DNA of 64,000 nucleotides from Raja brachyura (taxonomy: Eukaryota), in contig OY740812.1 of assembly GCA_963514005.1 (NCBI GenBank), positions 2,046,001-2,110,000 of the forward strand, given 5' to 3'. Every line of letters begins with the position of its first letter. The stretch's first letter is position 1. The position numbers and the translations under genes are program-made. The notes beneath the pieces are model-generated. The model had not been told where the DNA came from, did not search any database, and saw only the letters and a list, made by a program, of their open reading frames with translations. Below, in pieces: positions 1 through 31,100 of the stretch.

Positions 1-99
1 TCTGGAGAAAAGGAAAAGGTGACGTTTCGCGTCAGGACCCTCCTTCGGTCTCAGAGATGCTGTCCAACCCACAGAGTTACTCCAGCTTTTTGTGTCCAT

Positions 100-335
100 C
101 TTGGTCTCACTGTTGTAGTGGAAGCCACAGCAAGAGCACCAAATGCAAGAGACAAGGTTCGAGAAGTGCACACGACTCTCTGTCTCACCTGGAAGGGCTG
201 GTGGTTGGTGCATCGGTGGAAGTGGAGGTACATGTGTTGCACCTCCCGCTGTTGCCGAGACATGCCTGGAGAGGGGAGGGAATGGGTGGGGAAGGATGGA
301 CGAGACCGTGGAGAGAGCGTTCCGTGCGGGACGAT
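100..335 (-). mobile_element. Degenerate Penelope-like retroelement, GIY-YIG endonuclease fragment
   Basis: Minus-strand translation across frameshifts gives RTERSLHGLV...GRCNTCTS...PFQVRQRVVCT..SNLVSCIWCSCCGFHYNSETK. This resembles the PLE motif RRDRSLRDSLV..RCNTC..FQVRQRFTCTSSNLVYCIxCxxCGLLYIGETK. Confidence 0.7.
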
Positions 336-725
336 GTATGAGATACCTGTATAAAAGAGACTTGTTTTGTCTGACAAATCGGATCAATTTTCCAAAATAT
401 GGTCTCCTTTCTTTGAATTTCTTCAACAACAGAATGGTTGAACACAAATTCAAAACGGATGCTAGGGTCGGGTGAGCGGGCGCAGGGAAGGGTAGTGGGA
501 TATACCTCTCCTTTTCTTTCCACTTCTTCGTTAGTTCAGGGGTTTTTCTTCTTTTCTTTTTCCTTTCTTCTTCCTTTCCCTTCTTTCCTTATTTTTTTCT
601 TTTTTCCGATTTACTTACTAGTTTATAAAATGTTAAAACTGAAGCTGTACGAAAATTGTTACGTCGATTACGTTCTCCTTGTACAATTGCTTCTAATAAA
701 ATAAATATTTAAAAAAATAAATAAA
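336..725 (+). mobile_element. L1/Tx1-like LINE 3' end with A-rich tail
   Basis: Reads DKSDQFSKIWSPFFEF (fish L1 ORF2 C-terminus-like), followed by a pyrimidine-rich UTR and an AATAAA...(A)n tail at ~695-725. Confidence 0.5.
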
Positions 726-769: not shown

Positions 770-950
770 AACCACAGCAGGAACATTTACACAAAGTCAT
801 GGAGTTATTGAGAGAGTGGTCCCAGCGGAAAGCTGACAGGGAAAGTGACTGGTGGCGGGTCACAGGGAGAGTTGGCGGAAATGGTGAGGAATGATGTGCT
901 GGGTCTGAAGGCTGGCAGGGAGAAAGGTGACCACACCTGTCGTAAGCCAT
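770..950 (-). mobile_element. Second Penelope-like relic (RT-EN linker region)
   Basis: ORF 693..980(-) contains SPFPP...LSAFRWDHSLNNSM, resembling the PLE FPSPPLSAFRRDHSLRDSLV motif. Confidence 0.5.
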
Positions 951-1044
951 ACAATTTATAAAATGGTCAAAGATAGACACAAAATGCTGGAGTAACTCAG
1001 TAGGCAGCCAGCATTTCTGGAGAGAAGGGATGGGTCTTCTTTAA

Positions 1045-1830: not shown

Positions 1831-2000
1831 CTTTGTTGTACCCAAATTGCCCTCGGTTTCAGCCCGAAACGTCGCCTATCTCCTTCACTCCTTAGGTGCT
1901 GCTGCACCCGCTGAGTTTCTCCAGCCTTTTGTGTACCCTGCCCTCATTACAACATTGGCAACAGTTCACAAATACCCTTAACCAGAGAGGAAGCATTATT

Positions 2001-2990: not shown

Positions 2991-3349
2991 TTCCGATCCA
3001 GTAACAAGAACAAGTACGTTTTGACCTGAATCAAATACTGGAAAGATCGTTTTTAATTCTCCAAAATACCATTCCCAAGTGTGTTGGAAGGAACTGCTGA
3101 TGCTGGTATACACTGAAGATAGACACAAAATGCTGGAGTAACTCAACGGGACAGACAGCATCTCTGGAGAGAAGGAGTGGGTGACATTTTTGGGTCGAGA
3201 CCCGTGTTGAGTTATTGACTGCACCCAAAGTCCTCCGCACAAGCTGAAGTTGAAGCAGGCTCTTCACTAAAGACAGAAGGAACTGCAGATGTCAGAATCT
3301 TAAACAAAACACAAAGTGCTGGAGGAATAAAAAATAATAGAGCCGTGTC

Positions 3350-4320
3350 TTTGGAAAGATGAAGAGAAATTTCTTTAGTCAGAGGGTGGTGAATCTGTGG
3401 AATTCATTGCCACAGACGGCTGTGGAGGCCAAGTCATTGGATACTAGACTAAGTGGGACCCATTGGGTCCCAGCTTCAAACAGGAGGGCTGGTCCCCCAG
3501 TGCAATATTCCACCTCTCCACCAATCCCAATATTGCTGGCCAGTGGAGGGGCGGGGGGTGGGGGGGTGGGGGGGGGGGGGGGGGGGGAGCGCTAGCATGG
3601 TGTTGTAGGCTGAAGGGAATGGTTTCCAGAGGGCTAGTATGGACATTGTGGGCCGAATGGATTATTGGGCTGGNNNNNNNNNNNNNNNNNNNNNNNNNNN
3701 NNNNNNNNNNNNNNNNNNNNNNNNNNNNNNNNNNNNNNNNNNNNNNNNNNNNNNNNNNNNNNNNNNNNNNNNNNNNNNNNNNNNNNNNNNNNNNNNNNNN
3801 NNNNNNNNNNNNNNNNNNNNNNNNNNNNNNNNACCATATATATGGCAGTAAACTTTCTTGAATACTCACACGGCTAAGCGCAGCCTCTCCACTTTGGGGC
3901 TTCCGCAATCAGCGTGACCTCTACACTCACCGGAAATTACGCAATCAGCGCGACCTGTCCACTAAGTGGAAGTCACGAAATGAGCGGGACTTTTGAACCA
4001 AACACAGTCGGACCTAATAAAGCATTGATTCCTTCCAAACACAGTCGAACCTAATAAAGCATTGCAGTTTCAAGCACAGGCAGGGCAGCAGGCCAAACAA
4101 CTCATGGCATTGCCATTAAGGGCTAACAAATCATTTATTGCAAGTACATTGCAGACTCACAGTTCAATGTGTCAACATCCGGAGGTTGACAGATTCTTGA
4201 TTAGTGTGTCAAGGGTTACGGAGAATGCAAGAGAATGGGGTTGAGAAGGAATGATAGATCAGCAGGATTGAATGGTGGAGTAAACTGGATGGGCCGAATG
4301 GCCTAATTCTGCGCCTATGA
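3350..4320 (+). mobile_element. CR1 LINE 3' fragment split by an insertion (pieces ~3350-3443 and ~4180-4320)
   Basis: MKRNFFSQRVVNLWNSLPQTAVEAKSLD breaks at 3443. The CR1 sequence (ggaggttgacagattcttgattag...gggccgaatggcctaattctg) resumes at ~4180. Confidence 0.75.
3444..4180 (-). mobile_element. Non-autonomous Helitron-like element; 3' terminus at 3444
   Basis: The minus strand ends TGGGACCC-AAT-GGGTCCCA (hairpin, 3454-3472), then CTTAGT-CTAG|T. Internal 36-bp-period tandem repeats lie at 3904-4064. The 5' end is undefined and there is a gap inside. Confidence 0.6.
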
Positions 4321-4959
4321 CCCAGATGCCGAACTGTAATTATATTGCCCTTTTGTCATTTTTCCTATTAATACATATTTACATTTGCTGGCAATAAAAT
4401 ACACGCATTTGCAATATATTTGTTTGCAATTTAACAGCTTAATTTGAACCCTAAAATAAATTAACTCACAATCTCATTTTCTATAACATATACATTCTGC
4501 GATTAAAGTTGAAATCTTCTCCGCAAACACAGAAGAGCTGCTACCACAGCATAATTACCCCGTCAGAGTATTAGATCACTGTGCTAGTGATAAGAATCAC
4601 ATGATTACAAGTATATTCATAATGAGCATCACATAAAGATGATTTAATTATAGTTTCCTTAAATCTCTGTAAGTGTTATGTCCAGAGCTGTCACAGTTAT
4701 TACTGGTTTAAGAGTCATATCAGTGATTTATGTGAGCCATTCTTGTCTTTGAAACTGCACGTCGCAGTTTAGTAGCGGTATTTGTTTTTGCAACATCAGC
4801 CAATGGCGGCCCAGATTTGCAGTCAGTTCTGCTCGGGTGCAGTCAGACAAAGAAAAAAACACCCCACACATAAGTTTCAATAGTTCCACACTGCTCCAAT
4901 CAGTCCAACGGCAACGCTGACAAATTTACGCTGCTCATTGTACAAAAGAAGGATGAGAG

Positions 4960-5595
4960 GGCTATCATGTCTTTCATAGTCTCGGGGCTTCCCAGGTACC
5001 TTGCGGCCATTGAAACACTTTGGAGTTGTAATCCCTGGTATGTTGTAGAGAGGGCGGTAATTAATTGTTGCACAGCAAGGTCCAACAAGGGGCAAACACA
5101 GAGTGACAAGGTTGCTGCTTTCAATGACGTTTGCTTGATGTTAAATATTGGCCAAACAGTTTCAGTTTAGTTTATTGTCACGTGTACCAAGGTACAGCGA
5201 CAAGCTTTTGTTGCGTGCTAACCAGTCAGCGGAAAGACAATACACGATTACAATCGAAGATAGACACAAAATACTGGAATAATCAGCATTCTTCACACTG
5301 AAGAAGGGTCCCAACCCGAAACATCACCTATTCCTTCTCTCCAAAGATGCTGCCTGTCCCGCTGAGTTACTCCAGCATTTTGTGTCTATCTTCGGTTTAA
5401 ACCAGCATCTGCAGTTCCTTCCTACACATGATTATAATCGAGCCATTTATGGTGTATACAGTGTACATGATAAGGGACTAACATTTAGTGCAAGGTAACA
5501 TCGGTAAATGCCAATCAAAGACGTGGAGGATCTTCCCTATTTCCCTTTGTAAAAGTGTCTTGCCACCTGGCAAGGAGCTCTCAGCTCTGGTTTGG
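4960..5595 (-). mobile_element. Deu-SINE relic interrupted by nested insertions at ~5160-5520
   Basis: ggccattgaaacactttggagttgtaatc...ttgcacagcaaggtccaacaag...aaatattggccaaaca, resuming at ~5520 as ggaggatcttccctatttccc...gccacctgg. Both pieces resemble the Deu domain. Confidence 0.55.
5258..5425 (+). mobile_element. Short dispersed repeat (Penelope pLTR-like, hammerhead-bearing) with 16-bp TSD
   Basis: ctgaagaagggtcccaacccgaaacatc...gatgctgcctgtcccgctgagttactccagcattttgtgtc, flanked by acacgattacaatcga (5242-5257) and acatgattataatcga (5426-5441). Confidence 0.75.
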
Positions 5596-5749
5596 AAAAT
5601 TTGGAGTTAACCCACTCCACACCCTTTAACCCCCCCCCCCCCCCTCCCCACCATCCACCCCCTCACCACCACCCATCCCAAACCTGAGATTTCAGAACCG
5701 AAAGGAATATATGACAGCACAGCACAGAAACAGGCCCTCCAACTGACAA

Positions 5750-6180
5750 TCGACAATAGACAATCGGTGCAGGAGGAGGCCATTCGGCCCTTTGAGCCAG
5801 CACCGCCATTCAATGTGATCATGGCTGCTCATCCACAATCAGTACCCCGTTCCTGCCTTCTCCCCATATCTCCTAACCACTATCCCTAAGAACTCTATCT
5901 AACTCTCTCTTGAAAGCATCCAGAAAACCAGTCTCCACTGCCCTCTGAGGCAGAGAATTCCATACACTCACAACTCTCTGTGTAACCAGGTTTGTCTAAT
6001 CTCTGTGCGAAAAAGGTGTCAAGTTATACTGGCTGCCTGTCATCCATTCTCTGTATATCCTAAAAGACACTTAAATGCCCCTTTCGCTTCTGCGTCTGCC
6101 CCCACCACTTGTAAAAACCTTGCACTGTGCACATCTATTGCCCCCTCTCACCTTAAACCTATGCCCTCGAGTCTTTGACA
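5750..6180 (-). mobile_element. CR1 LINE 3' fragments
   Basis: gcaggaggaggccattcggccc...ggcagagaattccatacactcacaactctctg is the reverse complement of the CR1 3' UTR and the RVVxxWNSLP region. Confidence 0.75.
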
Positions 6181-6276
6181 TCTGAGTCCATGATATTTGG
6201 TGATGCATCAGTACAGCGCCAAAGGACAACTGCATTCTCAAATTATATCGAAGTTTTGTCTAAATGTTTCCACAAC

Positions 6277-6372
6277 CAGTCTGAAGAAGTGTCTCGACCC
6301 GAAACGTCACCCATTCCTTTTCTCCAGAGATGCTGCCTGACCGGCTGAGTAGGCTCGAGCTTTTTGTGACGA
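6277..6372 (+). mobile_element. Short dispersed repeat copy with hammerhead-like core
   Basis: cagt-CTGAAGA-agtgtctcgaccc-GAAAC-GTC-acccattcc...gatgctgcctgaccggctgag. Confidence 0.8.
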
Positions 6373-7221
6373 TCCCCACTGTCCCGGCTAACACCTTTAG
6401 TGCATTACTACTCATAACTCGCATTGCTAGACATTTGGGGTGATTGATGTACATTAATTCTCTGGCCTCATTCTCTACAGTTCAACTGGCTGTAAACATG
6501 GTACGGCCCTGAAAGATCTTATATAAAGGCAGCTTCCTTGTTTTATTACTGGAGAGGCTATGTGTTTGGCATGAAATGTAGAGCATGAAATCCTTTTCAG
6601 CACAAAATAATTTTGTTGATATGTTAATGCCTTCGGAGGTAACTCCTCCATCTGTTATTTTAATGAAGGCATTAAATCATATAAAATGAGTGGGTAATTC
6701 CCTCTATTATCAAAGCGGAGAAGAGGGCTTCTCTCTGGTCATGTCACCCACCTATATAAATGATTCATTGAAGATTCAGTGCAGGCAATGCAAAATCCAG
6801 GGCAGGGTTTTCCCATCTTTAACACCGAAGCCACATGTAGTCTTTGAGCACTGGCAATTCATATTCTGAATCCTATTTGTATTATCCTAATTAAGTGGCT
6901 TGTCTTTTTAATTTTGTGGATTTAGAAATTTGGAGAGGGCCATTCACAGAGGCAATTTCATTGAGGGTTAATGACGAGGTTATATATGGGGCTAGATATT
7001 TCTCCAAGAGGAGAGACCAAAATACGAGGGACATAAATGGATAAAAACAACACAGTGATAAAATGAATAAGGAATTTAGAAGAAACTTTATTACCCAGGA
7101 CGTGATTTAAATGTGGGCACTGGAGCCCAGGACAGTGGTTATGGTTGGTCAAATATCTGCATCCAAAGGGAAGCTGAATAATTACTTGCAGGAGCAAGGC
7201 GAGAGTTAAACAAAATGGAAG

Positions 7222-7785
7222 CACAAGAAACTGCAGATGCTGGAATCTTGAGTAAAGCACAAAGTGTGGGAGTAACTCGACGGGTCAGGCCACATTAGTG
7301 GAGGGAATGGACGAATGAAGTTTCAGGACGGGACTCTTCTTCAGACTGATAGGGGTATGCGGGGGGGGGGGGGGGGCGGGGGGGGAAGGAGTGGAAAAGG
7401 GAGGTGGGAACCAAGGCAGTAACGGATATGATGATTGTCTGAAGAAGGGTCTTGGCCCGAAACGTAACCTGTACCTTCGGGGATGGGGCGTGATTATCAG
7501 ATGTGTGGAGTTAGTGACAAAGGGTAGAGATGAGAAGGAGACCATAGATTGTCAGATTGCCCAATTTTTCACCTCTAGACTACATCATTACTCCACCCAT
7601 CTGCCAATCACCTGCCTCACCCATATCTACCTATCACTTGCCAGACTTTGTCCTACCCCCAGCTCTTGTCCAGCTTTCTCTGCCCCCTACAGCTCTAAGT
7701 GTGAAGAAGAATCCCGACTCAAAACAACACTTGTCCATTTCCTCCATGGATGCTGCCTGACTAGCAGAGTTACTCCAGCACTTCA
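7222..7785. mobile_element. Cluster of the same short repeat / pLTR-like copies in both orientations
   Basis: Minus copy at 7222-7350, plus core at 7439-7466 (CTGAAGAAGGGTCTTGGCCCGAAACGTA), and a plus pLTR-like copy at 7560-7785. Confidence 0.7.
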
Positions 7786-7794
7786 GGGTTTTAT

Positions 7795-8097
7795 GGTGGC
7801 ATAGTGGCACAGTGGTCAAGTTGCTGCCTTACAGCACCAGAGACCCATGTTCCATCCTGACTACGGGTGCTGTCCGTTCAGAGTTGGTACTTCTTCCTGT
7901 GACTGTGTGGGTTTTCTCCAGGTGATCTGGTTTCCTCCCACACTCCAAAGTCGTGCAGGTTTGTAGGTTAATTGGCTTCTGAATATTATCCTTTGTGTGT
8001 AGGATAGTGTTAGTGTATGCGTTGATTGATGGTCGGTGTGGACTCGGTAGACCAAAGGGCCTGGTTCCATACTGTATCTCGAATGTCTAAAGTCGAA
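7795..8097 (+). mobile_element. HE1-type V-SINE
   Basis: ggtggcatagtggcacagtggtcaagttgctgccttacagcaccagagaccc...gtgtgggttttctccagg...gaccaaagggcctggttcc...ctaaagtc; homologous to the copy at 2001-2335. Confidence 0.85.
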
Positions 8098-8459
8098 AGT
8101 AACTGTGTTTTGAGTTGGACAAAATTGGGTTGGAAGAAGTTGCTTGGAGCAGGAGGCAAATGATTCAAATCTCTGCTGCAATAACTATGCGGTACATGTA
8201 GCTGCAAGGCATCTTTCATTATTGGCAGCCTCAGAGATGTATAGGTTAATGCAGATGTAGGTTTTTATCCGATTGAAGCAATTTGGGAATTTGTGTTTTA
8301 ATAAGGAAAGAAAAAGACAATTTAGTAAATGTGGTCATGAAGAATCCTTGTGAAGAATCCCACATTGTCCTCCAGAGGAATGAAAGGTGCTGCCTGGCAT
8401 TATTCCAACTCTTCAGCAATGAAGAAGGGATCCCAAACTGAAGCATAGCCTAATTATGT

Positions 8460-8897
8460 GCACAAAGGAACTGTAGATGCTGGTTTACACCAAAGGTAGA
8501 GGCAAAAATTCTGGAGTAACTCAATGGGTCAGGCAGCATCTCTGGAGAAAATAAATAGGCGATGTTTCGGGACGAGATCCCAAACATCACTTATTCCTTT
8601 TCTCCAGAGATGCTGCCTGACCCTCAGAGTTACCCAAGCATTGTGTGTCTACCATCACCTAATCATTCCCTCCCACAGATGCTGCCTGCTCCATTGTGTT
8701 AAAAAAAAGAAAATAGAAAATAGGTGCAGGAGTAGGCCATTCGGTCCTTCGAGCCAGCACTGCCATTCAATATGATCACTGCTCATCATCCAAAATCAGT
8801 TCCCCGTTCCTGCTTTTTTCCCGGATCATCCCTTGATTCCGTGTTCCTCCAGCACTTTGTGTTCCAGTCACAATCCCAGCATCTGCAGTTCCTTGTG
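8460..8897. mobile_element. Inverted-pair short repeat plus a CR1 3' end (8715-8840, minus strand)
   Basis: ggagtaactcaatgggtcaggcagcatctctggaga ... tctccagagatgctgcctgaccctcagagttac forms an inverted pair. gcaggagtaggccattcggtcc is a CR1 tail. Confidence 0.7.
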
Positions 8898-9299
8898 ACG
8901 CCACGTCACAGAGGCTGGTTCTAACTGTCCACTCACACTGCACCAGAACCACTGCAGAAATGGCTCAGGCAAATGGCTTGTGATATCCCTCTCAGAGCAT
9001 CGCAGGAGACGGCAGCCTTGCCACTGATTCCCCACTTGCCAAGATGAATACTAAAAAAATATTAAAAGCCATCTGAAAAAAATATACTGGAAACACTTAG
9101 CAGGTTGGGTGGCGGGGTGGGGCTGGAGGGGTAAGAAAACAGAGTTCCTGTTTCCAGGCTAACAACAACACCCCCTCTGTCTCCATCACCCTCCCGAACT
9201 CGTTTTCACCTGGACTAACTAACAAAGGCCTGATTCCTTCATCAGTGTTTTACTTTTTTTACAAATCGTTCATTCATTTGTCCATATCCCCGGATTCTC

Positions 9300-9410
9300 T
9301 CAGTCTGAAGTAGGGTCTCGATCCAAACGTCATCTATCCCTTTTCTCCGGAGATGCTGCCTGGCCCGCTGAGTTACTCCAGATTTTATTTCAGATTTCCA
9401 GCATCTGCAT
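9300..9410 (+). mobile_element. Short dispersed repeat copy with mutated hammerhead core
   Basis: cagtctgaagtagggtctcgatccaaacgtc...gatgctgcctggcccgctgagttactccag. Confidence 0.75.
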
Positions 9411-10299
9411 TCGTTTATTTCAAGGTTTGGCAATACCTGTGTGCCCACCAATGCAAACTCTTGGGAGGTTTTTGTTTTAAGTGTCTCACATGCCTCAAAT
9501 AGACGACCCCCCCCCCCCCTGAACATTGTGGATTTTTATCAACACTGTGGCTACACTCTTCCAATGCCTTCAACCAAATGTATTCAGTGGCATTTTAAAC
9601 CTCACCATATGCTCCGGTAATTAACCTCGTTGGTGATATCATTGCTGCAGTATTACCAGGAAATCATTCGCAGAACGTTACTAGGCAGCCTATATATTAA
9701 AACGGATTACATGATATTGTAATAAATATTTGTCCCACTACTTAAGAAAGGTCGTGACATGAATTTCTCAGAAACGCAAAAGGTAATCAAGTATTAGATT
9801 ACATCAAGCAAATATACTTGTTGGCTCCTTATCAAGAATCATTGATTGTCGAGTGAATGTTTTTTTATGTTGGTTCTAGATTTCTGGCTGACTGATAAAA
9901 CCCAATCTAGTGCGTTGACTTTATCGCTGTTGGTATTCAGATCTCTCACTTTAACAAGTGCCTGATGTGGGTTTAATGGCGTGCGCGCACGCCCAAAGTG
10001 CACAGCCTACAAATATGTTGCAAATCACATCTGGTTTTCTTCAAACAGGTTTTACTGAGTCCTAGCATTCATACAGAGATAACCTTTCAACCCAACCCGT
10101 CCGAGAAGGGTTTGAATTGTATTTTGACTCTGATAAAAGTTAGATAATAGATTTCCAAACGGAGGCAGCGAATACACAGAACACACTCATATTCTTCAAT
10201 CTCGGGGTTTAGAGAGTTCTATTCATGTTGTGTTATTCAATGAAATGTAGTTTGGAACATTATATAGACATTGTCCTGGCTCTGTATTCTGGGACAATG

Positions 10300-10302
<3 letters not shown>

Positions 10303-10346
<44 letters not shown>

Positions 10347-10350
10347 ATAT
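10303..10350. repeat. (TA)n microsatellite
   Basis: Directly visible in the sequence. Confidence 0.95.
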
Positions 10351-11699
10351 TAAAGTGATTGATATTATCTTCATGATCCATTGAAAGTTTTCGATGTGCT
10401 CTCTGAGGCAACCCAAGGTGCAAGTCTGGAGTGAGATCGCCAAGTTTGCCCGCAGTGAGCGAAACCTCATCAGCTCCTGACACTGGCTTTTACCGGCATT
10501 AGCAATGATTCATATCCTGGATTGCAGCTGTCTTGGTTTATATTCATTGCGGCTCGTGTTTCGCACCTGTAAGGTCACCATCAAATGTTCACGACTTCTT
10601 GTGATGATATTATGTAGTTGCGTAGGTTCCACCGCCTGCCAAATGCTTAACAACTGGCACCCGGCTGGAACTCCGAGAAAAACCTTTGGTCGAATTTTAA
10701 GCAATAACATACACTATTTGGCTGCACCCAGACTTAGAGTGTGCCCGTGTCTTTCTTTTATCTGAAAAACACCCCCCAAAAAATCCACGTTTTGTTCCAA
10801 TTGGTCTCAGAATTGAATCTGTTTCCTTGTCTCAAGTTGATCCTCAGATTAACAAGTAAAACTGACTGGACAAGGAACTGAATGTGGGACAACCGTAAAA
10901 CCTTCGAACATGTAAACAACAAACAGCTGCAGAGCAAAGCAACACAGACTGTTCTTTGGGTCACCATTTGTGCAGGGAATTTACTTAAATGGGATATCTT
11001 TTGATAAATTGGACCGTTATCATTATGCATTTTTAACAGTGGACAATTGATATATGAAAACATATGACTGTGCATTTGGATGGAATAAAGAATATCAATA
11101 AAGTTGGAAATGCGGTAGATGAAATACATATGTAAGTTTTTACCTACTTTGATTTTTATGTTGACGGTAATGTTTAAAAATGGCTGATAAACAAGTACCT
11201 ACTTGAAAATGAAGGAAGTTAAAATTGCAGTGATGTCACAAGGGATTGAAATGTCACTGGCTGTCTCTTGGTAAAGGAATACTAGACTCGTTTCTCTCTC
11301 AAATAAGCGAACGAAAAGTAAGATGAAAGCGTGGCTCCACTGTACACTGTTTCAGAGTATATTGTAAGGTAACTCTCCCCGTAAGGCTGGAATGAGGAAT
11401 TTCTAACAATTGAAAGATAACTACAGTGACCGGGTCAATAATAACAGATAACCTCTCCGGCCCGCTAATCCATAGCAATAAGAACGGTTGAGTTCCATTA
11501 TTGCGGGGATCTCCCCTGTATCAAGGTACGAATGAATGGTAGATGACATGGNNNNNNNNNNNNNNNNNNNNNNNNNNNNNNNNNNNNNNNNNNNNNNNNN
11601 NNNNNNNNNNNNNNNNNNNNNNNNNNNNNNNNNNNNNNNNNNNNNNNNNNNNNNNNNNNNNNNNNNNNNNNNNNNNNNNNNNNNNNNNNNNNNNNNNNN

Positions 11700-12028
11700 A
11701 TGTGTGTTATAGATTATGTATGATATTATATATATGTGTGTGTGTTTGTGCGTATGTATTTATATATAATGTATTGATATATAAATATGTATATATTTAT
11801 AGGCGTGTATGCATATATCTATATATATAATATAATATATATTAATATATACATATATATATCAATTATATACACATATATACACATACATACATATGCA
11901 TATATATGTGTGTGTATGCGCGCATTATATATATATATATACTATAATATATATATAATGCGCGCACACACACACATATATATGCATATGTATGTATGTG
12001 TATATATGTGTATATAATATATATAACA
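11700..12028. repeat. AT/TG-rich low-complexity repeat including a long inverted repeat (11865-12018)
   Basis: Directly visible; adjacent to an N gap. Confidence 0.85.
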
Positions 12029-14718
12029 CATTGTTGTGGGGTGCGGAGCGGGAGGGGGGGGGGTCATAAGGGGAATGGGGAATAACGAGAGGTGCCCGCA
12101 TTATCGCCAATAGCCAACGTGAAGGACGTTGATAGGAAGCAACATCTGAGTCAAGGTCAATACCCCTCCCATCAGAACCGCTGACTCAAACTAACATTGG
12201 AAACCCGAGTCACTCCTTCAAACTCTTGTTGGGATGATCAGCCACTCCTCTTTGACATATTTCAATATTCTTGAAAACTTCAGCTAATAACAGCAGACCA
12301 CAACCTGGCTGCTCAACACCCGGCTTGAGATCTAACTATTTCTTTAGTTTATGTTTCATTCGCAAGAAGAAGGAGCGGAGGAACGAGGAAACCGGAGTGC
12401 GGGGCAAATAATTTATTAGAAATTAATAACTGTAGCCCAAAGTGAAACATCAAACAGGGTCTGGATTCCATGCCCTTGCCTGGAAACTGAACCCTTGCTG
12501 TTCCAGGTGCCCTAAAGTTAGAACTGAAGTTAAAACAAGTTGATATATTTACACGGGCATATTTGTATTTGGACTCAACATTTACCGAACCCGGTCCTCT
12601 CAGTTCCATGATTACATTTATACTTAAACGCCGTGCGCTTGGCAAGTGAGTCACAAGACGGGACCGACACGCCCAGGCACCCACATATCAGAACTCCAAT
12701 TGTTACGTCGGTTCATTTGCTGCCAATTTCAGTCATTGTAATCATGGGATGAAAACGCACACATTTCTCAAACAACGCGCAGAAATACACGCTGCAAATG
12801 TGACGCTGGGAGTATCTGCTGCATCCTCCGTCCTGCAAGTCCGATAAGAGCCACGAATAAATTAAAACATTTAACCCCCCCCCCCAACCCCTCCCCCACA
12901 AAAAAATACACCCAACTAAATATTTGGGGGGTTGTTGTTGGTAAATTTCCATCAACGGCGATGCCAGCGAAGAATGTTCCTTTTCATCCCAAAATATACC
13001 AGCAATTTGATTTTTAATTTCCTGCTACACCAAGACTCTCAGATGAAGGAAACCGCAGCGAGCTTTTGTGTATTCATAAGTAAAATATATTCACCTTTGG
13101 CTTTCGAGTAAAGCCACCTAGAACTCCAGCATTTCAGTTATTCTGTTTCTCCGGGGAACGGGCCCGCTTGCAGCATATCCAAGTCTGATTGGGTTTACAT
13201 GTGCATATGCGTTTTTAATTTATACAAAGAAATACATTTATAATTGCTCGTTAGCTAACATTCTTTCTGCGGCGCCCTTCCCTCGTTATATCCCCGGGTC
13301 GGGGATAGCTGTGCTGTCTTTCAAATGAGCCCACTTACTTCTTAAAAGTGAAACTAATTACTTTCTGCGGGGTTTATTGGTGCTATACAGTTTAGACATT
13401 TATCGACAGAATTTTAATCTATTGAAAGGAATATATTCGTGTAAAATAAAATCCCTAATTCGGTTATTTCCTTCATACATGCATGGTTATTGAATCCATG
13501 CAGTGTCATTAAAACAGGGATAAAATATCTATTTTTAATAAACGTATCCGTTCTCTCCAAAACTAATAATTCTGCACAATAACTTAAATTATGAATGTGG
13601 TAATTTTCGAGTGTGTGTGTTTAATATGTTCTGCTTCTTCTGATTTTATTTTCCTCGCGAACATATACTTCACAGTGCAGTAATGAAATTTTGGACACTG
13701 TACGTCTGCGGGATATTAAAGTTGAATTATAATTGCGAGTAATGGCGAAACACCCGATTTGTGAATGTCGCTTGTGCGGTTAGCGGGGTAACCTTGTGAA
13801 ATACGGAATGTGGTCTCTGTTGGAGATGGTGACATTGAGATTTTCTCTCGCCCCCCCCCCCCCCCCCCCCCCCCCCACACACATAGGCACAGTGTGAGGA
13901 TAGCGTTACTAAAGCCCCCCTAGACCTGTCCACTCCGACCTCGGTCCATCCGTTTCTAGTCCCCAAGGCCTCATCCAAGCGGGAGGATTAACTGGAAAGT
14001 AGCATCACGAACCATCGCCTGATGCTATAATGACTAGGATTGCCTGGCATAGGAATCTACTCCCCATCAGAGTTGTAATCAGAGAACTCTCCAATTCTGA
14101 AGCTTGTCAATTATTGGAAACATATTTAGCAAAAAGCACATCCATACTCGAAATTATAACCAAGCTCAAATCACCTTCACTATTATTTAGACAACCTTTC
14201 ACCGACCATGCGGGGTTACATAGATTTATTACCACAAATAAAATATAAAAATAACATAAAAACCATCATTCAATTCTCGTTATATGTTCACAACATTCTA
14301 TATGCTGTACATGCATGAATACATAGATATAAGGATGATTTGAACGGGAACTATCCATATACGTAAATGGTTATTTAACAAACGGTAGTTTTTATTTTCA
14401 AATATATACTTTATTGAGACTAAAAATGTGTATGCAACGCAAAAGTTGTGCAAAAACTCTTCACGCGTTCTCTTTCTTTTTGTTTTACCAAACAATAGTT
14501 TAATAAAGGTTCTAGGACGCTAGGTTTGGTAGAATTGACAAGTTAAAATATTCCACTTGGTGTGTTGAAAGCCCAGTCCCACTCGCCCCTCTGGTAGGTT
14601 ATACAGGGAGAGAACCTTCAGGACACGGGTGCCCTGTATGGAGGTATATATGCCAATGATGGCGATGGCAGGAACGCCACTCCTTGATGTAAGGGATTAA
14701 CTCGCATCTCTGACATCG

Positions 14719-15006
14719 AATAAAGGCACAGAGTGCTGGAGTAACTCAGCGGGTCAGGCAGCATCTGTGGAGAACATGGATAGGTGACGTTTCACAGAGT
14801 GCTGGAGTAACACAGCGGGTCAGGCAGCATCTGTGGAGAACATGGATAGGTGACGTTTCGTGTCTGATTCTTCTTGAAGAAGGGTCCCGATCCGAAACGT
14901 CACCTATCCATGTCCTGCACAGATAATGCCGAACCCGCCGAGTTACTCCAGCACTTTATGTCTTTTTTTTTGTGTCACCCAGCATCTGCAGTTCCTTATT
15001 TCTGCA
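14719..15006. mobile_element. Palindromic short repeat insertion with internal 66-bp tandem duplication and 13-bp TSD
   Basis: Units 14727-14792 and 14793-14858 differ by one mismatch, and the inverted arm runs 14894-14955. The TSD is atctctgacatcg (14706-14718) / atccctgacatcg (15007-15019). Confidence 0.85.
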
Positions 15007-15339: not shown

Positions 15340-15612
15340 TCTCTTGATGTGTGTACTGCCTTGGTGTAATCTCTTATCCCTACTTGTACTTAAGTATGAC
15401 TGTGCTTGTGTGTAGTAAGATTTTTACTGAATTTTATGCAATATCAAAAACAAGTATTTCACTGTATCTCGGCACATGTAACAATAAAGATGGGTTTGGA
15501 CCCGAAACGTCACCCATTCCTTCTCTCCAGAGTTGCTGCCTGTTCCGCTGAGTTACTCCAGCTTGTTGTGTCTATCTTCGGTTGAAACCAGCATCTGCAG
15601 TTCCTTCCTACA
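15340..15612 (+). mobile_element. LINE 3' tail (same family as 5160-5250) followed by a short dispersed repeat copy
   Basis: ttcactgtatctcggcacatgtaacaataaa, then gggtttggacccgaaacgtcacccattcc...gagttactccagc. Confidence 0.65.
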
Positions 15613-17340: not shown

Positions 17341-19658
17341 AAGGACTGGAGAAGGAGAACTGGCTTCTTGTGGCTGGCCCTAGGCAAACCTTTCAGCCTG
17401 AGTAAATATTGAACGAGTCCATCTGATGGCCGGAGTGAAATAGCCCTGTCAAGCAATTGTAAACTTAAAGCGGGGTAAAACCACAAGGAGCAGAACATTG
17501 TACTGCAACTTCCTCATTGTTTTTCACTGAGGTCAAACTCTCCTTCACCTGCTTGCGAAGTAAAAAGGAACGGAGGTGATCAGTAATTAAATTCAAAAAT
17601 AGGGGGAAAAAGCTGCCATGCGCTACCCTCTCTCCCAATCACTCAATAATTTTAATTCGCGTGTTTTATTTGGTGTGAAAACTTGTTAAAGAATATTGGT
17701 TACTGGCGTCACTCTGAAAGTTGAATCTGTGTTCTAAATGGAAGCAGACAATTTTAATAAAATGAAACACACATGAGATGTAGCAAAGACACATGGACTC
17801 CTGATGTGTGGGGGGTTATGTTGCCAAAATAACTCCGGTATTCTGCCCAGAATTTCCCTTCTCTCTCAATTTCCTCCGTTCAAAGACCCACTGAGTTACT
17901 CCAGCATTTTATGTCCTTTTATTTCTGTAAACCAACATCTGCATATCCCGGCGAACGCAGACTTATTCTCGTTATTTGTTTTGAATAATGGCGCGTTCCT
18001 TCCAACTGCATAATAATGTCCGCTCGGATTAGTTGCAATGTTGCAACCCTGAAAGGAAGGCGGAAAACAGAGAAATCCGTCTTTAGGCAGGTATGAAGTT
18101 GTTGGCCTCTGGGATAAATCCCCTTTGAATTCCCCCGCATGGCGATTATTTATTTGCCCCATTTCCCATTCCCCTCTGTGGAAGTTGCAGCAACCGAATT
18201 TGCGACCAATATCTGATGCAACATTTCAAGAACTCACATTTACAACAATAAGTCGGCAAAGTGTGAAGGTAAAGACGAGAAGGCCTTAATACCGTGGCAA
18301 AAGAGATGAAACACTGAAAGGTGACTAAACTTTTGCCCTGTTTGTGTTTTGTTCTTAAATTGGTTGTAGGAGCCTCTTTTATTTCCTGTTTTGTATTTGG
18401 CTCAAGATTCCAGCATCTTGTTGTCTCGGCATTTTTTGTTTTTTTTTAATTTGCGGGAGAAGGTACAAGCATTTGATTTTAAAACGCGTGAAGTCGCGGC
18501 CAATCCAGCTCCGAATTTGTAGAGGGTGAAATGCGAATGACAAAGGTTTGCTGGGAGTTCAAAGGGAGCCGGCATAAATTTTATGAACGCGGTTTCTCTT
18601 ACATCAAAAGGCATCACATCGCGCGGGTGAAAACCCCCACAAAACAAGTGCAATTAGCACAAACTCGTCAGCAGCAGATGGCTACATTCGATGTTCGCTA
18701 AGGACATGAGTTAGTCCCTTTGAAAACACTTTTACAAACAAAATTCCCGCAGCCATCAAGAACAAGGGACCCTGGAGCCTTATAGCCTTTTTATAAAAGT
18801 TCTGATTTCTCTGAAACTTTTCTGGTGGGCACTACAGTCATCTATTCATTTATATATTTACTTAATTGGGGAGGGAGGGGGGAGTGGTATTGGGCAGCAA
18901 GAATTGGTTCTAACTTTTACCAATCGCGGTCTCAAAATGTTCATTTTTTCCCATTTAAACGAAACCTGAAGGTACATTGAACACAAAAAAAAACGTGGCG
19001 TCACAACTGACGCAGTGGCAGTGGGAAAGTTGAGTACAAAGTTAACAAAATGTTGATGTAACAGACACGATATGTAAAAGAAAAGTGCTAAACGGAATGA
19101 CACGGTGATGTGGTCGGAGGGTGAAATCCTAGCAGCCTTGATATACAGTAAGGGTGGACAAAGGGACATGCGGTGGAGAGGCCGGGTTGTTTGCAACGAT
19201 TCCGGTAACAACAGCCCGATTTTAGTGGAAGCTGTACGTGCCTTTGTTGTGGACTGCGGCACAAGGCAAAGCAGATAGTGTTCCCTGGTCCCTTCATTGT
19301 TCCCCGGCATGGACATTCTATTGAAATGCATTCTTCATTGCATATGGTTGAGAACAGGATGCTGGTTGGGTCGAAGTTTGTACTATTCCTAAGCACACAT
19401 AGAAAGTCAACAGACGTTGGAATGAAAATGACTGGCATAGACAGATGATTTTGCATTAAACATTAAAAAAACCCCTGAAAACAAAAGTTACTTATTATCT
19501 CGCTACTCTCATGAATTGTCTCCCTGGTTTTAATCGTTTCTCCCTCGGCTTTTGAAGCGCCATTATATGTTTTCCTGCCACCACTGGAATATTTACTACA
19601 CTCGGGAAGAGAGGAAAATCATGCCACAGTTTGCAAAATGAATGGATTACCTACCACC

Positions 19659-22223: not shown

Positions 22224-22555
22224 TTAGGAGGTGTGGATATTCTCCGATGTGGATGATCTGGGCGACGTGGACGGAGACGTGTCCGACCCATCCCCGGATT
22301 CCTTAGCAACGGAAATGGAAAAGTTGGGAGCGAATCCTTCTTTCTCTCGCTTCTTTTGCTTCATCCTGCGATTCTGAAACCAAATTTTGACCTGAGTCTC
22401 ATTCAACTCAAGCGTGGCAGCTATCTCTACTCTCCTGGCGCGGGTTAGATACTTGTTAAAGTGGAATTCCTTTTCCAGCTCAGTTAGTTGTTTCGTGGTG
22501 AAATTGGTTCGTATTGTGTTCGTCTGTCCAGCTAGTCCATAATCAGTGATTTTGG
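22224..22555 (-). CDS. HOXB1: HoxB1 exon 2 (homeodomain)
   Basis: Acceptor TTTCCAG|CC. Encodes [60 protein letters not shown] (PG1; [10 protein letters not shown] is B1-type). The spliced protein is 307 aa. Confidence 0.96.
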
Positions 22556-23323
22556 CTGGAAATGTGCAAAGGAAGACAATTACAGCGAGACAACTTGAGC
22601 ATTTCCAACCCCTTCCATACAACCAGCGCCATTAACCAACACACACACCAGCTATGTGTCCCAGGAAACATGAGATAGATCAGTGCGAGGCTTTTAGTCT
22701 AAATTCAACTCATCTTATTGAAGAAGACTTCGAACAATATATAACCCTTAATCGTCATAAACGAGAAAAAATAAATTTACGTCCCTCCTCTCCCGCCCCA
22801 CCCCCCACCCCCTCCCCCCTCCCCGGGCTATGCTGGGGGTTCCCTAAGTAAATATTGCCCCAGCTGTTCCAGTGAAGTGCCATTAAACCAACTCAAAGTG
22901 AAACTCCCCGCTTAAATAATAAATTGGTAATTTATATCCGAGATCATGTTTCACCGAATGGAAATCCACGAACAGGCCATCATCACACATTCCCCTTCAA
23001 GCTACAGTCCCGCCTTCCGTGAGATTTCCCTGCCATTTTCAGCTCAGTTTCATAAATTTGGAAACATCCTACCGTTTATCTCTTATTTAGACCAATTGAC
23101 TCCGGGAAAGGGGAGGAGCAAGAGGGCCATTGCAAAACGACCCCAATAAACATTGGGTGTTAACTTACAAGTCAAGATTCCTTTTCAAAAATATTTACAT
23201 TAAGCTTTTTTAATGTTTACAGTTTTAAATTGTGAAATTTCGAATCGTCTTTCAATTGGATTCCTGCCAGTCCCCTGAGTCACTCACGGGGAAATAAATG
23301 TTCTGACCGCTTCACACACTGAC

Positions 23324-23915
23324 CTGTTTTAGGAGGGTTTCTTTTCACTTTCATCCAGTCAAAGGTTTGGCCAGAGGAGGATGAATCTGAGGTGCATGAG
23401 GCTTCTTTTTCCCCCTCTTGTGATGGCGACAGATTAGCATAAGTTTCATACGCCAAGCCCTGTTGCTCATGGCCGTAAGAATGTTGATACTGACCCGTCC
23501 CCGAGGCCCCACAGTAACCGTCTGAAACTGGGTTGACACTGGCTCCTGCGTTGCCAGCGTACCCCGAGCTTTGAAAGTACGCCCCGTCCGACTCTTGGGT
23601 GAAAAAATAATGGTGATTGTAACCGGTGTTACAGGTTTGGGTGGCGAAGTTGTTGAGGCCTGGACTGGAGTATGGAGTCGTCAGGCTGCAATGATGCGAA
23701 TAACCCACTGGCTGGTGCTGATGTTGAAGTGTATTGTGCGCGCTTCCTCCAGCTAAGAACCGTCCATCACTATTGTAATTGTCAACGTTACCTGCACAAG
23801 GAGAGAAAGCTGTTATCCCTTGTTCTGAATGGTGGTAACCCTTGGATGAGTAGGCGCTTGTCCCGCGATTACAAATTGCGTACTCTAAGAAAGAGTTCAT
23901 CGTCGTATTGTCCAT
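23324..23915 (-). CDS. HOXB1: HoxB1 exon 1
   Basis: Starts MDNTTMNSFLEYAICNRG and contains the hexapeptide TFDWMKVKRNPPKT. The donor ACAG|GTCAGT is phase 1. Confidence 0.96.
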
Positions 23916-27780: not shown

Positions 27781-28096
27781 CCTTCTTGTCTTCTCAAGGC
27801 CTGCAATCAAAATCGGATATAAAATCCTAATGGATTGCCCTGTTTGGAAAAAAAAACACAAGACAACACAGTACAACCATTCGATAAATGAGAACTATTT
27901 TCAAATGGTGAAGATGCGAGATATTGAGTCAAAATCCAGGACAAGGCAGGACAATAGTGAAAATAGAACATCGAGTGATCAGGGGAGGCATCAAACTTGG
28001 GCTCTCAAAGCTAGTGGGCCGTGAGTAAGGAAAGATCTGGAAAGATCTCGAAAGGTTTGAGATTCGGATGAAAAATGGGTTAAAGAGTATAGAATA

Positions 28097-28188
28097 GGCA
28101 CAAAATGCTGGAGTAACTCAGCGGGACAAGCAGCATCTCTAGAGATAAGGAATGGGTGACGTGAAGGGTCGGGACCCTTCTTCAGTCT
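28097..28188 (-). mobile_element. Short dispersed repeat copy inside the cluster
   Basis: ggcacaaaatgctggagtaactcagcgggacaagcagcatctctagaga...gggtcgggacccttcttcagtc. A further fragment lies at ~29396-29432. Confidence 0.85.
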
Positions 28189-31100
28189 GTTTGGTAATGG
28201 TGAGGCAGGAACAGCCAAGCCCCGTTCAACTTGGTGTCTTGTCGAAAATCTGCTGTAATATATTATTTTCATGCAAAACTGTCATGCACTTCAGTTGCCA
28301 TAGAGACGTGCCTGCTAGCGGTAGGTGTCCACGTTATTGGGTCTGATGGGACAACATATGTGCACCAGTGTAGTAGTGGAGGCTGGTATTTCCTTCTCTC
28401 TCTCTCTAATGGGAAGTGAAGCGATGTGAAGGGGAAAAAAATGGGACATCTCATAAACGAGAAACCATGTGGTGTGTTGCAGGCTGAAGTGCCGCAGTCA
28501 CCATCAGTGGACCATTCAATATGAATAAGCAATAGGACTCCTTCGATCTCCGACATGATTTGTAGAGTTATGTGTAAACACTAGGCAGGCTTCTTAAAAC
28601 ACTGTTCACTTCATCCCAAGGCTTTCAAAAGTCTAATTTAGAATCTGGTAATACACAAATGCGGCACCTGGAAGTTGTCACCATGACTTATACACTCGCT
28701 TTATTATTGGCATTTCGTGTTTAATTGTTATTTTTTTATTGCATTGGTTGTGTTTTAAAAATAATTAGTTTTATTTGAACTGTATATTTATTGACTGCCT
28801 GGTTTCCAAGCCATTCACAGGACATGGCGAAATATGTCTGAACGATTGATTTTAAATTTATAAAATTGATCAGAAATTGACAAGGAGGAGGATGGGGGGG
28901 GGGGGGGGGGGGGGAAGGGATACGCTTTATGTATTTAAGGAAGGGTGGATGGAGTGGTTAGTTCCCATTTATTAAGCCTGTTCTGTGGGCGTAGAATTGA
29001 TTTGTAATTGTCACTGGCGTGTTCCCTGGACGTGAAGCAAGTTTTACTGGTCATTATGCTATGTAAAGAGGCGCTCGTTAGAGATTTGTATTGATAACAC
29101 GTCAAGGTTTGCACACGTAAGTTGAAGGAGTCTCTACTCAATTAAACTGTCATGCATTTATATTGGAATAAAGGAGAACACATAACTAACTCTGCGGCGA
29201 GATTAAATCCTGGAATTTGATGGAGTTCGCCGCTCGGATTCGAGAATAAAAACCTCTAAACAAGACAGTCGATTTCCTCAGTTATTTTTAGAATCATTGC
29301 ATGGATGTAAAAGACAGCCTGGCCTGATTTCCGGGCCCCTGTCTACAGTTGTCCTTGTTGTATCTAAATCTTTATATTAGACAGGTAGATAGCAAAGATT
29401 GACACAAAATGCTGGAGGAACTCTAGCGGGAGAGTGGGAAATCTTTACATTTTTCGCCATGTTGTGTGTGTATCTGTGTTGCATGTTCCACCCGGTTTAT
29501 TCTGCCTCAAATGTATTCGCTTTCCCTTTTAAATCATAGGCAGTTTATAACCATTTTTCTTATTCTGTTCTGTTTCTCTGTATCTCCTCGTTTCGTGAGC
29601 TCGTGTCTCTTCCATTGGAACTTTTGTTTTTGTTCAGTTGGCGGGGAAGCAGCGTTGAACGACCAACAATCTCTCCATGGTCTGATTTGTGTTTCAGAAA
29701 CTCAAACAGGACAACAGCACATCAACTGTGGGCTGCAGAAGGAGCATTGGGTACAAGGTAGAACATATTCAAATCAGAACAGTGTCTGAATTATTAAAGC
29801 CGTAGCAGTGATCGATAAGCAAAGTGTATTAAGAAAATGCCGAGCAAAGGGGGGCAGCAATGAAAAGTTAAAGTGATTTAAATAAGGACTTGATTGTTTA
29901 AAATATTCCATGTATCTTAAAAAAATAACTGTTATACTTTCCGAGCTTTTTCTAAATATCTGGAATAATATCAAAATACTTTCGTGGGGGGTGAAAATAT
30001 TTGAGAAAAAACGGTAAATGATGAGTGTCTTGTATCCTATGCAAACACGGCGCCATTTTGCAGCAGGATAATATGGGCTAACAGATTCTGCTATCAGCAG
30101 TCTTGTCCACTGAGCATTTCCGAATTCGCCACCAAAATTCTACCTTGCTTGGGAAACACCCGTGACTAGGCATATGCGTAATATGATTTATTTTTCGTGT
30201 CACTGCGATTGATTTCTCGAAATGACCTCCTTCATTCATAAAGCGGCGTGATGTATGAGTTTAAGTAAAAAAAAAAAATTACATCTTGTAAATAAGGCTC
30301 CCCTGGCGGGGAGCGAGGGCAGGTGGGAGCCCCAGAAAGTGGAGCACGATTGTGAATTTCAAAAAAAATGGAGCCGATGATCGATGTTGGTACGCGAGGC
30401 CCTGGTCCTCAGACTCCAGTCTCGCTTCTCTGTTTGCTAAATTCTTTCATCGTTTTCTGAAGTGTAAACTCCTATCTCCTCGTTGGCTTGTTCCCTTTAT
30501 ACCCTTACTATTTTTCCCACGAGCTAGAGAGAGAGAGAGAGTGTGTGTGTGTGAGAGAGAGAAATAGAAAGGGGGGGGGGGGGGGGAGAGAAAGANNNNN
30601 NNNNNNNNNNNNNNNNNNNNNNNNNNNNNNNNNNNNNNNNNNNNNNNNNNNNNNNNNNNNNNNNNNNNNNNNNNNNNNNNNNNNNNNNNNNNNNNNNNNN
30701 NNNNNNNNNNNNNNNNNNNNNNNNNNNNNNNNNNNNNNNNNNNNNNNNNNNNNNNNNNNNNNNNNNNNNNNNNNNNNNNNNNNNNNNNNNNNNNNNNNNN
30801 NNNNNNNNNNNNNNNNNNNNNNNNNNCATTCCCTACAACCCTGGCCCAATCATAGCGACAAATTAAACCAAGAGCAGGGATTAGTTTCCAACTTGCCCCT
30901 GCAGAATCCGATATCTATTCTCTCCGCAGAGTCTCCTTTACATTCTTTCATTCGGCATGAAGAGGTCAGTTTTCGTGGATGTTAAATGAATCTGCTAGCC
31001 CCCTCCCCCCCTCCCCCCCTCCCCCCCCCCCCCCCCCCAACGCCCCACACTTGGGAATCATCTGTTTCGTATTTAGAAAAAACTTTTTGAACTTTCTCCG

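Follow-up and report, generated by a model that had tools for sequence, protein, structure and literature searches.

Minimal type I hammerhead ribozymes are already known from the Penelope-like elements (PLEs) of many animals, and the consensus that Cervera and de la Pena (2014; PMC4209133) give for them in Fig. S3 reads NNN CUGANGAH G...C GAAA N palindrome N U H NNN. Three features are described there as emerging outside the search descriptor, namely an extra nucleotide after A9, a G10.1-C11.1 pair and palindromic positions 15.2-16.2, and for these motifs the same source reports no cleavage as monomers and low cleavage as dimers. Other closely related systems are the Anolis Poseidon element PAc (Frangieh et al. 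2024; PMC11167929), Drosophila virilis Penelope, and the metazoan non-LTR retrozymes (PMC7229834; bioRxiv 10.64898/2026.07.22.740005), which are non-coding, hammerhead-bearing and proposed to descend from PLE pseudo-long terminal repeats (pseudo-LTRs). Here we describe an abundant repeat of about 100-135 nt in a stretch of 64,000 nucleotides from the skate Raja brachyura (contig OY740812.1, positions 2,046,001 to 2,110,000), called the window below, which holds the 3' flank and part of the HoxB cluster, with the repeat adjoining the cluster. Its copies are probably the dispersed 3' pseudo-LTR ends of an endonuclease-bearing (EN+) PLE, probably of the Neptune type, that are short, 5'-truncated, often inverted and mostly inactive; most of them are probably inactive leftovers and not a new kind of element. 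Further literature drawn on comprises PMC8557442, PMC7761336, PMC6155905 and PMC2377424.

The majority sequence of 15 aligned copies, AGU CUGAAGA A GGGU CYCG ACCC GAAA CG UC ACC, contains the CUGAAGA box, an extra A, a G-C closed stem II, GAAA, an ACGU palindrome, the UH and a 2-bp stem I, and all three of the features listed outside the published descriptor are found in the repeat. An earlier note on this DNA had proposed a hammerhead core, and a pattern allowing at most one mismatch does recover it at 5298-5325, 6281-6308, 7317-7344(-), 7439-7466 and 14874-14901; these five matches, compared with a mean of 0.03 in 100 shuffles, count as one event, since the repeat itself supplied the pattern and its copies are relatives of one another. 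A descriptor modelled on the published minimal hammerhead gives one strict match (7439) and two when one stem II mismatch is allowed (6281 and 7439), while it matches once in total over 30 shuffled windows, or about 5e-5 per 100 nt. The same search confirms that stem I has only about 2 bp, as had been remarked, and the predicted pairing of this helix is 0.00-0.02. An Rfam search of the window returned no hammerhead match at E<=10. Counted over the copies that reach the respective columns, with start columns placed by eye, the CUGANGA box and extra nucleotide are kept as C3 7/8, U4 8/9, G5 9/9, A6 9/9, G8 9/9, A9 7/9 and extra A 9/9. The pair closing stem II has G10.1 in 12/12 and C11.1 in 12/13, with 87.5% of cells paired over five pairs, and the 3' core reads G12 10/14, A13 13/14, A14 13/14, A15.1 14/14, C 13/14, G 10/14, U16.1 13/14 and H17 14/14. 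This pattern supports assigning the core to the PLE-type minimal type I hammerheads.

Some details of the earlier description need correction. The stem read as GGGUC-nn-GACCC is there, but it is better read as 4 bp (GGGU/RCCC) with a 4-nt loop than with a 2-nt loop; a 2-nt hairpin loop is sterically poor in RNA. The decayed copies at 21-48(-), 9305, 15490 and 28158-28185(-) are all present, but that at 15490 has no CUGA box, and the minus-strand copy placed at 7318-7344 in fact spans 7317-7344. The example at 5298 keeps the pattern, but G16.2A has removed its stem III palindrome and stem I is unable to form there, and in the example at 14874 the U found at C3 is the centre of a palindromic junction, without stem I. 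In the copy at 28158-28185(-), TTCA in place of GAAA lengthens stem II to a 7-bp hairpin, a change that looks like a quasi-palindrome template-switch mutation.

The resemblance to the motifs of PMC4209133 extends to the CUGAAGA box with its extra A, the G10.1-C11.1 pair, the GAAA-C-G-U-C string and the loopless palindrome, as well as to dispersed single copies and related motifs lying nearby on opposite strands. The skate motif differs in having 4 bp in stem II, compared with mostly 5-8 in that set, and 2 bp in stem I, compared with usually 3-5; Fig. S3 nevertheless includes 2-bp helix I cases from Drosophila virilis, Culex and Oikopleura, and none of its 56 motifs comes from a cartilaginous fish. 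The Drosophila virilis Penelope shares the 2-bp helix I, a 34-bp terminal repeat and an inverted arrangement with the skate copies, whereas its small stem III insertion and 6-bp stem II set it apart. The skate family seems very abundant, with more than 100,000 contigs per run in three sequencing runs (which is not a copy number), compared with the 4,000-9,000 motifs given for coelacanth and Xenopus.

The insertion anatomy of the repeat does not depend on the hammerhead motif, and it is on these structural grounds, head-to-head inverted copies and an optional tail of about 34 nt, that the PLE derivation proposed in the earlier note stands. A blastn search seeded with five window copies gave 23 pieces, of which one, a 15-nt T-run match, was discarded, and ten of the 22 pieces kept make up five head-to-head inverted pairs. 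When 24 pieces (the 22, with one split in two, and one short piece added by eye) were aligned to the copy at 5296, their 3' ends fell at reference positions 90-105 in nine and 123-132 in ten, so that two classes about 34 nt apart hold 19 of the 24, with the other five ending elsewhere. In all three pairs with both 3' ends present, the full tail is found on one arm only. This arrangement matches what Craig et al. give for PLEs, whose 5' end is accompanied by a 5'-truncated copy in inverted orientation and whose tail of 30-40 bp is often present at one end only. The skate tail ends about 120 nt past the point where stem II begins, and PAc likewise has two element ends about 90-120 nt past the hammerhead and a tail of 30-40 nt, which lies between two reverse transcriptase (RT) start sites located 111-118 nt from the start of its open reading frame (ORF) at stem II. 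PAc, however, is a tested autonomous element whose ORF begins at stem II, while the skate repeat has no attached ORF.

Two frameshifted ORF relics adjoin pieces of the repeat and may or may not belong to the same insertion as it. Both had been described as GIY-YIG relics, at 100-335 and 770-950. That description suits only the first, here delimited as 100-345(-), which reads across three frames and carries a C-x6-C-x2-C linker followed by a stretch whose GIY-like and YIG-like halves, both degenerate, are separated by C-x2-C; the second, 770-955(-), shows no GIY-YIG-type residues, and we take it, unconfirmed as it is, to resemble the PLE region between RT and endonuclease. Neptune and Nematis PLEs are described as having a CX2-5CxxC linker upstream of GIY-YIG, compared with which the skate linker is C-x6-C-x2-C in a frameshifted stretch, and Poseidon elements are described as lacking this Cys-rich linker. 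The first relic is probably a Neptune-type PLE endonuclease, a candidate that no library confirmed.

If the copies are PLE ends, their formation can be pictured after the Anolis and Drosophila elements. The PLE RT/GIY-YIG protein would bind its own RNA about 90-120 nt downstream of stem II and nick the target DNA, and target-primed reverse transcription would start at one of two internal sites, which would explain why the tail is optional. Where synthesis then ended early or switched strand, the inserts left would be short or palindromic, often stopping near the hammerhead. The ribozyme would cut after GUC only in tandem transcripts of source elements, as an ACGU:ACGU dimer and probably with the help of protein, and solo genomic copies would have no partner, would adopt another fold and would have no need to cleave.

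The family was surveyed in assembled contigs by aligning those of four of 20 runs, labelled as four organisms, to positions 6240-6400 at 80% likeness; one of them, run X18, is flagged as probably DNA, a flag that is not evidence on expression. Matching contigs number 104,914, 114,195, 129,737 and 12,584 in the four runs, counts that are not copy numbers, and their depth climbs abruptly at 6276-6281. Loose ends before 6277 show a pyrimidine-rich consensus in all four runs. Among the 15 joints listed, of 59, nine connect opposite strands, joints of this kind occurring in all four runs, and six go back 45-74 nt, at depths of up to 408 compared with millions. Inversion driven by microhomology was considered and is not supported, as most of the joints share 0 letters, and no weight is given to a concentration of inversion joints at 6276-6284 and 6310-6321, which the reference imposes by where it begins and stops. 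A stem with GGGUU, a GCCC strand and a G at 1.1 hint at a subfamily (copy 1855-1934(+); contig positions 6296 and 6309), the A>G variant that gives this G being found at 4.3-8.2% with the U-G pair retained. In run X1 the loose-end consensus has AGGU ahead of the core, and helix I could thereby reach 4 bp.

The proposal that the repeat depends, or once depended, on RNA self-cleavage finds no support here. The contig variant table spans 6294 to 6337 and has no entry for 6290, a position at which the window copy is unlike the others, and so apparently covers the motif only downstream of the CUGA box. In it, G12 changes to A in 7.9-9.3% and C11.1 to T in 6.0-7.3%, compared with 5.8-6.9% at the loop CpG and 6.8-19.7% at the stem III CpG; the decay of G12, a catalytic position, therefore follows the CpG rate, and that of the stem III CpG is likewise like other CpGs. 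Non-CpG core positions in this table show no variant of at least 4%, and neither do positions 6321-6335. There is no pile-up of 5' ends at the cut site among the six best loose-end positions listed for each run, beyond which lie 484 further rows, and the single window copy whose homology starts at the predicted cut site, 969-1035(-), could instead result from a deletion between two ACCC words. Compensatory changes in stem II, suggested earlier as a check, gave no significant covariation (94 of 500 shuffles reach the score, in an alignment that carries flank letters at stem I). For the 97-nt majority sequence, folding predicts stem II with a probability of 0.08 and stem I with 0.00, while the energy predicted for a hammerhead-like dimer is -12.7 compared with a minimum of -21.1 kcal/mol; the folding of the copies is unremarkable (z -1.1 to +1.3). 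For the copy at 9290-9412(+), a long helix between its 3' part and its hammerhead 5' box is predicted, with a z of only -1.1. A selected 'off-state' hairpin was rejected as a candidate, since 138 of 300 shuffled tails suppress stem II equally, and the suppression is therefore not that of a selected switch. Cleavage of the Anolis PLE is reported as protein-assisted and not needed for insertion in vitro, which hammerhead mutants did not affect there (PMC11167929), and in the 2026 preprint eight of nine tested dimers are reported not to cleave and one to be active. Weak activity of the skate hammerhead would be expected for the class.

Several observations weigh against reading the copies as PLE ends. 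Neither relic was confirmed by a library: searches of Pfam (4 frames), NCBIfam (5 frames), a word-based homologue search and the ESM Atlas gave no match, the PDB gave one unrelated match (E 0.12), and a HMMER library match was to a single repetitive protein and was judged spurious. The relic motifs were, moreover, picked after the translation had been seen, and with the libraries blank both relics count as likely, though unconfirmed. A comparison of their DNA gave no overlap in the expected register, the best match being pyrimidine-rich and off-register, and no repeat copy is linked to an RT/EN ORF in the window. Many contigs begin 2-3 nt ahead of the core without the consensus flank, which also fits a dedicated short master, and in run X1 loose ends number 1108 and 1186 at 6278/6279 compared with 1794 at 6277. 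Among the window copies, 7 of 109 non-CpG core cells differ from the majority, compared with 86 of 617 downstream (p=0.03). The greater conservation of core than flank, whose absence the earlier note had counted against its reading, is nominally seen without CpGs but not with them (11/123 compared with 91/643, p=0.15); the distal downstream block alone departs in 40 of 396 cells, and the comparison is biased, as the copies are not independent and the start columns were chosen by eye, which favours the core.

Since many copies start just before the core, the principal alternative is a dedicated short, non-autonomous PLE derivative, with a master that begins at the hammerhead's 5' boundary, possibly at a splice acceptor, and relies on PLE protein acting in trans for its mobility, a reading that we hold possible but not likely. 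It would explain the jump in contig depth, the many loose ends before 6278/6279 that have longer flanks without consensus (agreement 0.30-0.34), and the absence of clear common upstream homology among the eight window copies with a CUGA box, where, inverted arms aside, 28 tested pairs gave one 11-nt match only (7701 and 28185); non-autonomous PLEs are also described by Craig et al. in Chlamydomonas. The short master is weakened by the uniqueness of the reference flank, which partly forces clipping at the core edge, and by the bias of contig counts towards unique flanks. Against it also stand the upstream pyrimidine stretch common to the loose ends before 6277 of all four runs and to the copies at 7344, 7701 and 9305, and the varied downstream starting points of the other window copies, which random truncation would give. 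A true non-LTR retrozyme, whose tandem units would be transcribed, cleaved as dimers and circularised and whose offspring would be the dispersed copies, is very improbable. The joints that go back 45-74 nt are in its favour, one of them in run X18 containing a second CUGA box, so that some tandem dimers exist, and the 2026 preprint reports retrozymes in one chondrichthyan together with monomer derivatives. These tandem joints are nevertheless rare, though contigs under-represent arrays, and most of the dimers tested in that preprint were inactive. Metazoan non-LTR retrozymes are described as arrays in which at least two tandem units in succession carry complete hammerheads, and as having circular RNAs, while the skate copies are solo or inverted; no tandem full-hammerhead unit occurs in 1-32 kb, where the single array (66 nt x2) has no CUGA box, and one copy alone passes the strict descriptor, though the genome may have arrays elsewhere. 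The motif is minimal and not canonical type I (2-bp helix I, no loop 3); the 2020 retrozyme definition calls for contacts between loop 1 and loop 2 in a canonical type I hammerhead, whereas the 2026 preprint admits minimal motifs too. The label 'retrozyme-like' used earlier is accordingly dropped.

A reading in which an unrelated SINE-like repeat bears the hammerhead-like string by chance would agree with the blank Rfam search, the non-significant covariation and the unremarkable folding, yet the rarity of descriptor matches in shuffled windows, the fit of features beyond the core to the published consensus (extra nucleotide after A9, G10.1-C11.1, C-G palindrome) and insertion signatures independent of the motif leave this reading hardly any credence. 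Another idea concerns the sequence just upstream of the core, which is 73-83% pyrimidine in the copies at 7344, 7701 and 9305 compared with a background of 50%. CAG precedes U-CUGA (A-CUGA in 28185) in four of nine window copies; in the loose-end consensus of all four runs a polypyrimidine stretch and CAG stand one nucleotide ahead of the CUGA box, and the CTCTCAG that ends the upstream stretch of 9140-9412 resembles this consensus. Drosophila virilis Penelope has its intron end at 491 and hammerhead position 3 at 496, and splicing, which is demonstrated there, alters helix I, whereas in the skate repeat only an acceptor-like sequence is seen. On this pattern it is conceivable, though rather unlikely, that the family is a hyper-abundant PLE derivative of this skate and that splicing gates its hammerhead. 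If it were true, intron removal, as in Drosophila Penelope, would swap a strand of the 2-bp helix I for exon sequence and could switch the ribozyme on, and such activation could include host transcripts splicing into intronic copies.

The 22 pieces of the repeat total about 2.0 kb of the window, 19 of them in 1-15.7 kb, and blastn with the five seed copies found none past 29.5 kb, leaving the part inside the Hox cluster (29.5-64 kb) empty. Assembly gaps at about 3674-3832, 11552-11699 and 30596-30826 (1174 N in all) may hide some repeat structures. The exon at 23280-23915(-) has 93% identity to Amblyraja radiata HoxB1 and at most 83% to other rays and sharks. Upstream of HoxB1, 30081-30289(+) matches the Rfam model HOTAIRM1_2 (38 bits, gathering 37, E 0.11); we take this model to derive from the HoxA region, and the match may be a paralogous conserved element. 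At 1718-1835 a 35-nt palindrome overlaps a 54-nt x2 tandem, right ahead of a repeat copy. Other repeats, in three groups (2041-2335 and 7790-8070; 1215-1460, 3370-3440 and 4190-4320; 5760-5960 and 8715-8840), seem to resemble the elasmobranch HE1 SINE and CR1-type LINE ends. Exact-pattern scans for the repeat in viral and metagenome contigs gave 0 loci, and no description of this skate family was found in the literature, though Repbase, Dfam and the supplementary lists of the 2026 preprint may contain it.

Table. Copies of the repeat and neighbouring features, in window coordinates.
Feature	Position	Strand	Details
Head-to-head pair	1..102		1-49(-), decayed hammerhead 21-48, cut by window edge; 41-102(+), without tail
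ORF relic	100..345	-	Frameshifted; C-x6-C-x2-C, then degenerate GIY-YIG-like stretch
Second ORF relic	770..955	-	Frameshifted; no GIY-YIG residues
Copy	969..1035	-	Homology starts at predicted cut site; no tail
Divergent copy	1855..1934	+	CUGA box lacking; loop reads UUCA, strand GCCC, position 1.1 is G
Two 5'-truncated copies	3080..3327	-	3080-3212 and 3276-3327; with tail
Short inverted arm	5248..5287	-	Reaches only 7 nt into tail
Direct arm	5296..5427	+	Hammerhead at 5298-5325 with G16.2A and lacking stem I; complete tail of 34 nt at about 5394-5427
Solo copy	6278..6374	+	No tail; C3=6281, stem II 6289-6300 (mismatch 6290), G12=6301, ACGU 6304-6307, C17=6308, predicted cut 6308/6309
Inverted arm	7225..7436	-	Decayed hammerhead 7317-7344; tail; upstream pyrimidine-rich stretch ending CAG
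Direct arm of inverted pair	7437..7478	+	Sole copy passing strict descriptor, with GUA triplet and 2-bp stem I; breaks off about 12 nt past cut site
Decayed copy	7580..7783	+	C3G, G12A; pyrimidine-rich upstream stretch, likely untranslated region of the element
Palindromic pair	8452..8660		Joined within stem II, no CUGA box; 8452-8580(-) with tail, 8576-8660(+) without
Piece similar to copies in 3080..3327	8839-8894	+	
Copy	9140..9412	+	A9U, G12 deleted; tail; upstream pyrimidine stretch ending CTCTCAG
Complex insertion	14717..14997		66-nt x2 tandem on minus strand, units without CUGA box; meets direct copy 14874-14997 (with tail) head-to-head at CUGA box
Copy beginning at stem II	15487..15612	+	With tail
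Piece similar to copies in 3080..3327	17886-17943	+	
HoxB1 gene	22224-23915	-	93% to Amblyraja radiata
Solo copy	28093..28188	-	Between HoxB1 and remaining cluster; GAAA -> TTCA; no tail
Piece similar to copies in 3080..3327	29395-29434	-	
mir-10	48596-48671	-	

Taken as PLE ends, these copies extend the PLE minimal hammerheads to a skate repeat, a modest gain given that the class is known, and they allow an abundant SINE-sized repeat to be annotated as such. The high abundance of the family gives statistical power on the in vivo role of PLE hammerheads, through insertion ends, inversion joints and the decay of the core. The decay of G12 at the CpG rate and the lack of a 5' pile-up at the cut site fit the in vitro report that insertion does not need cleavage.

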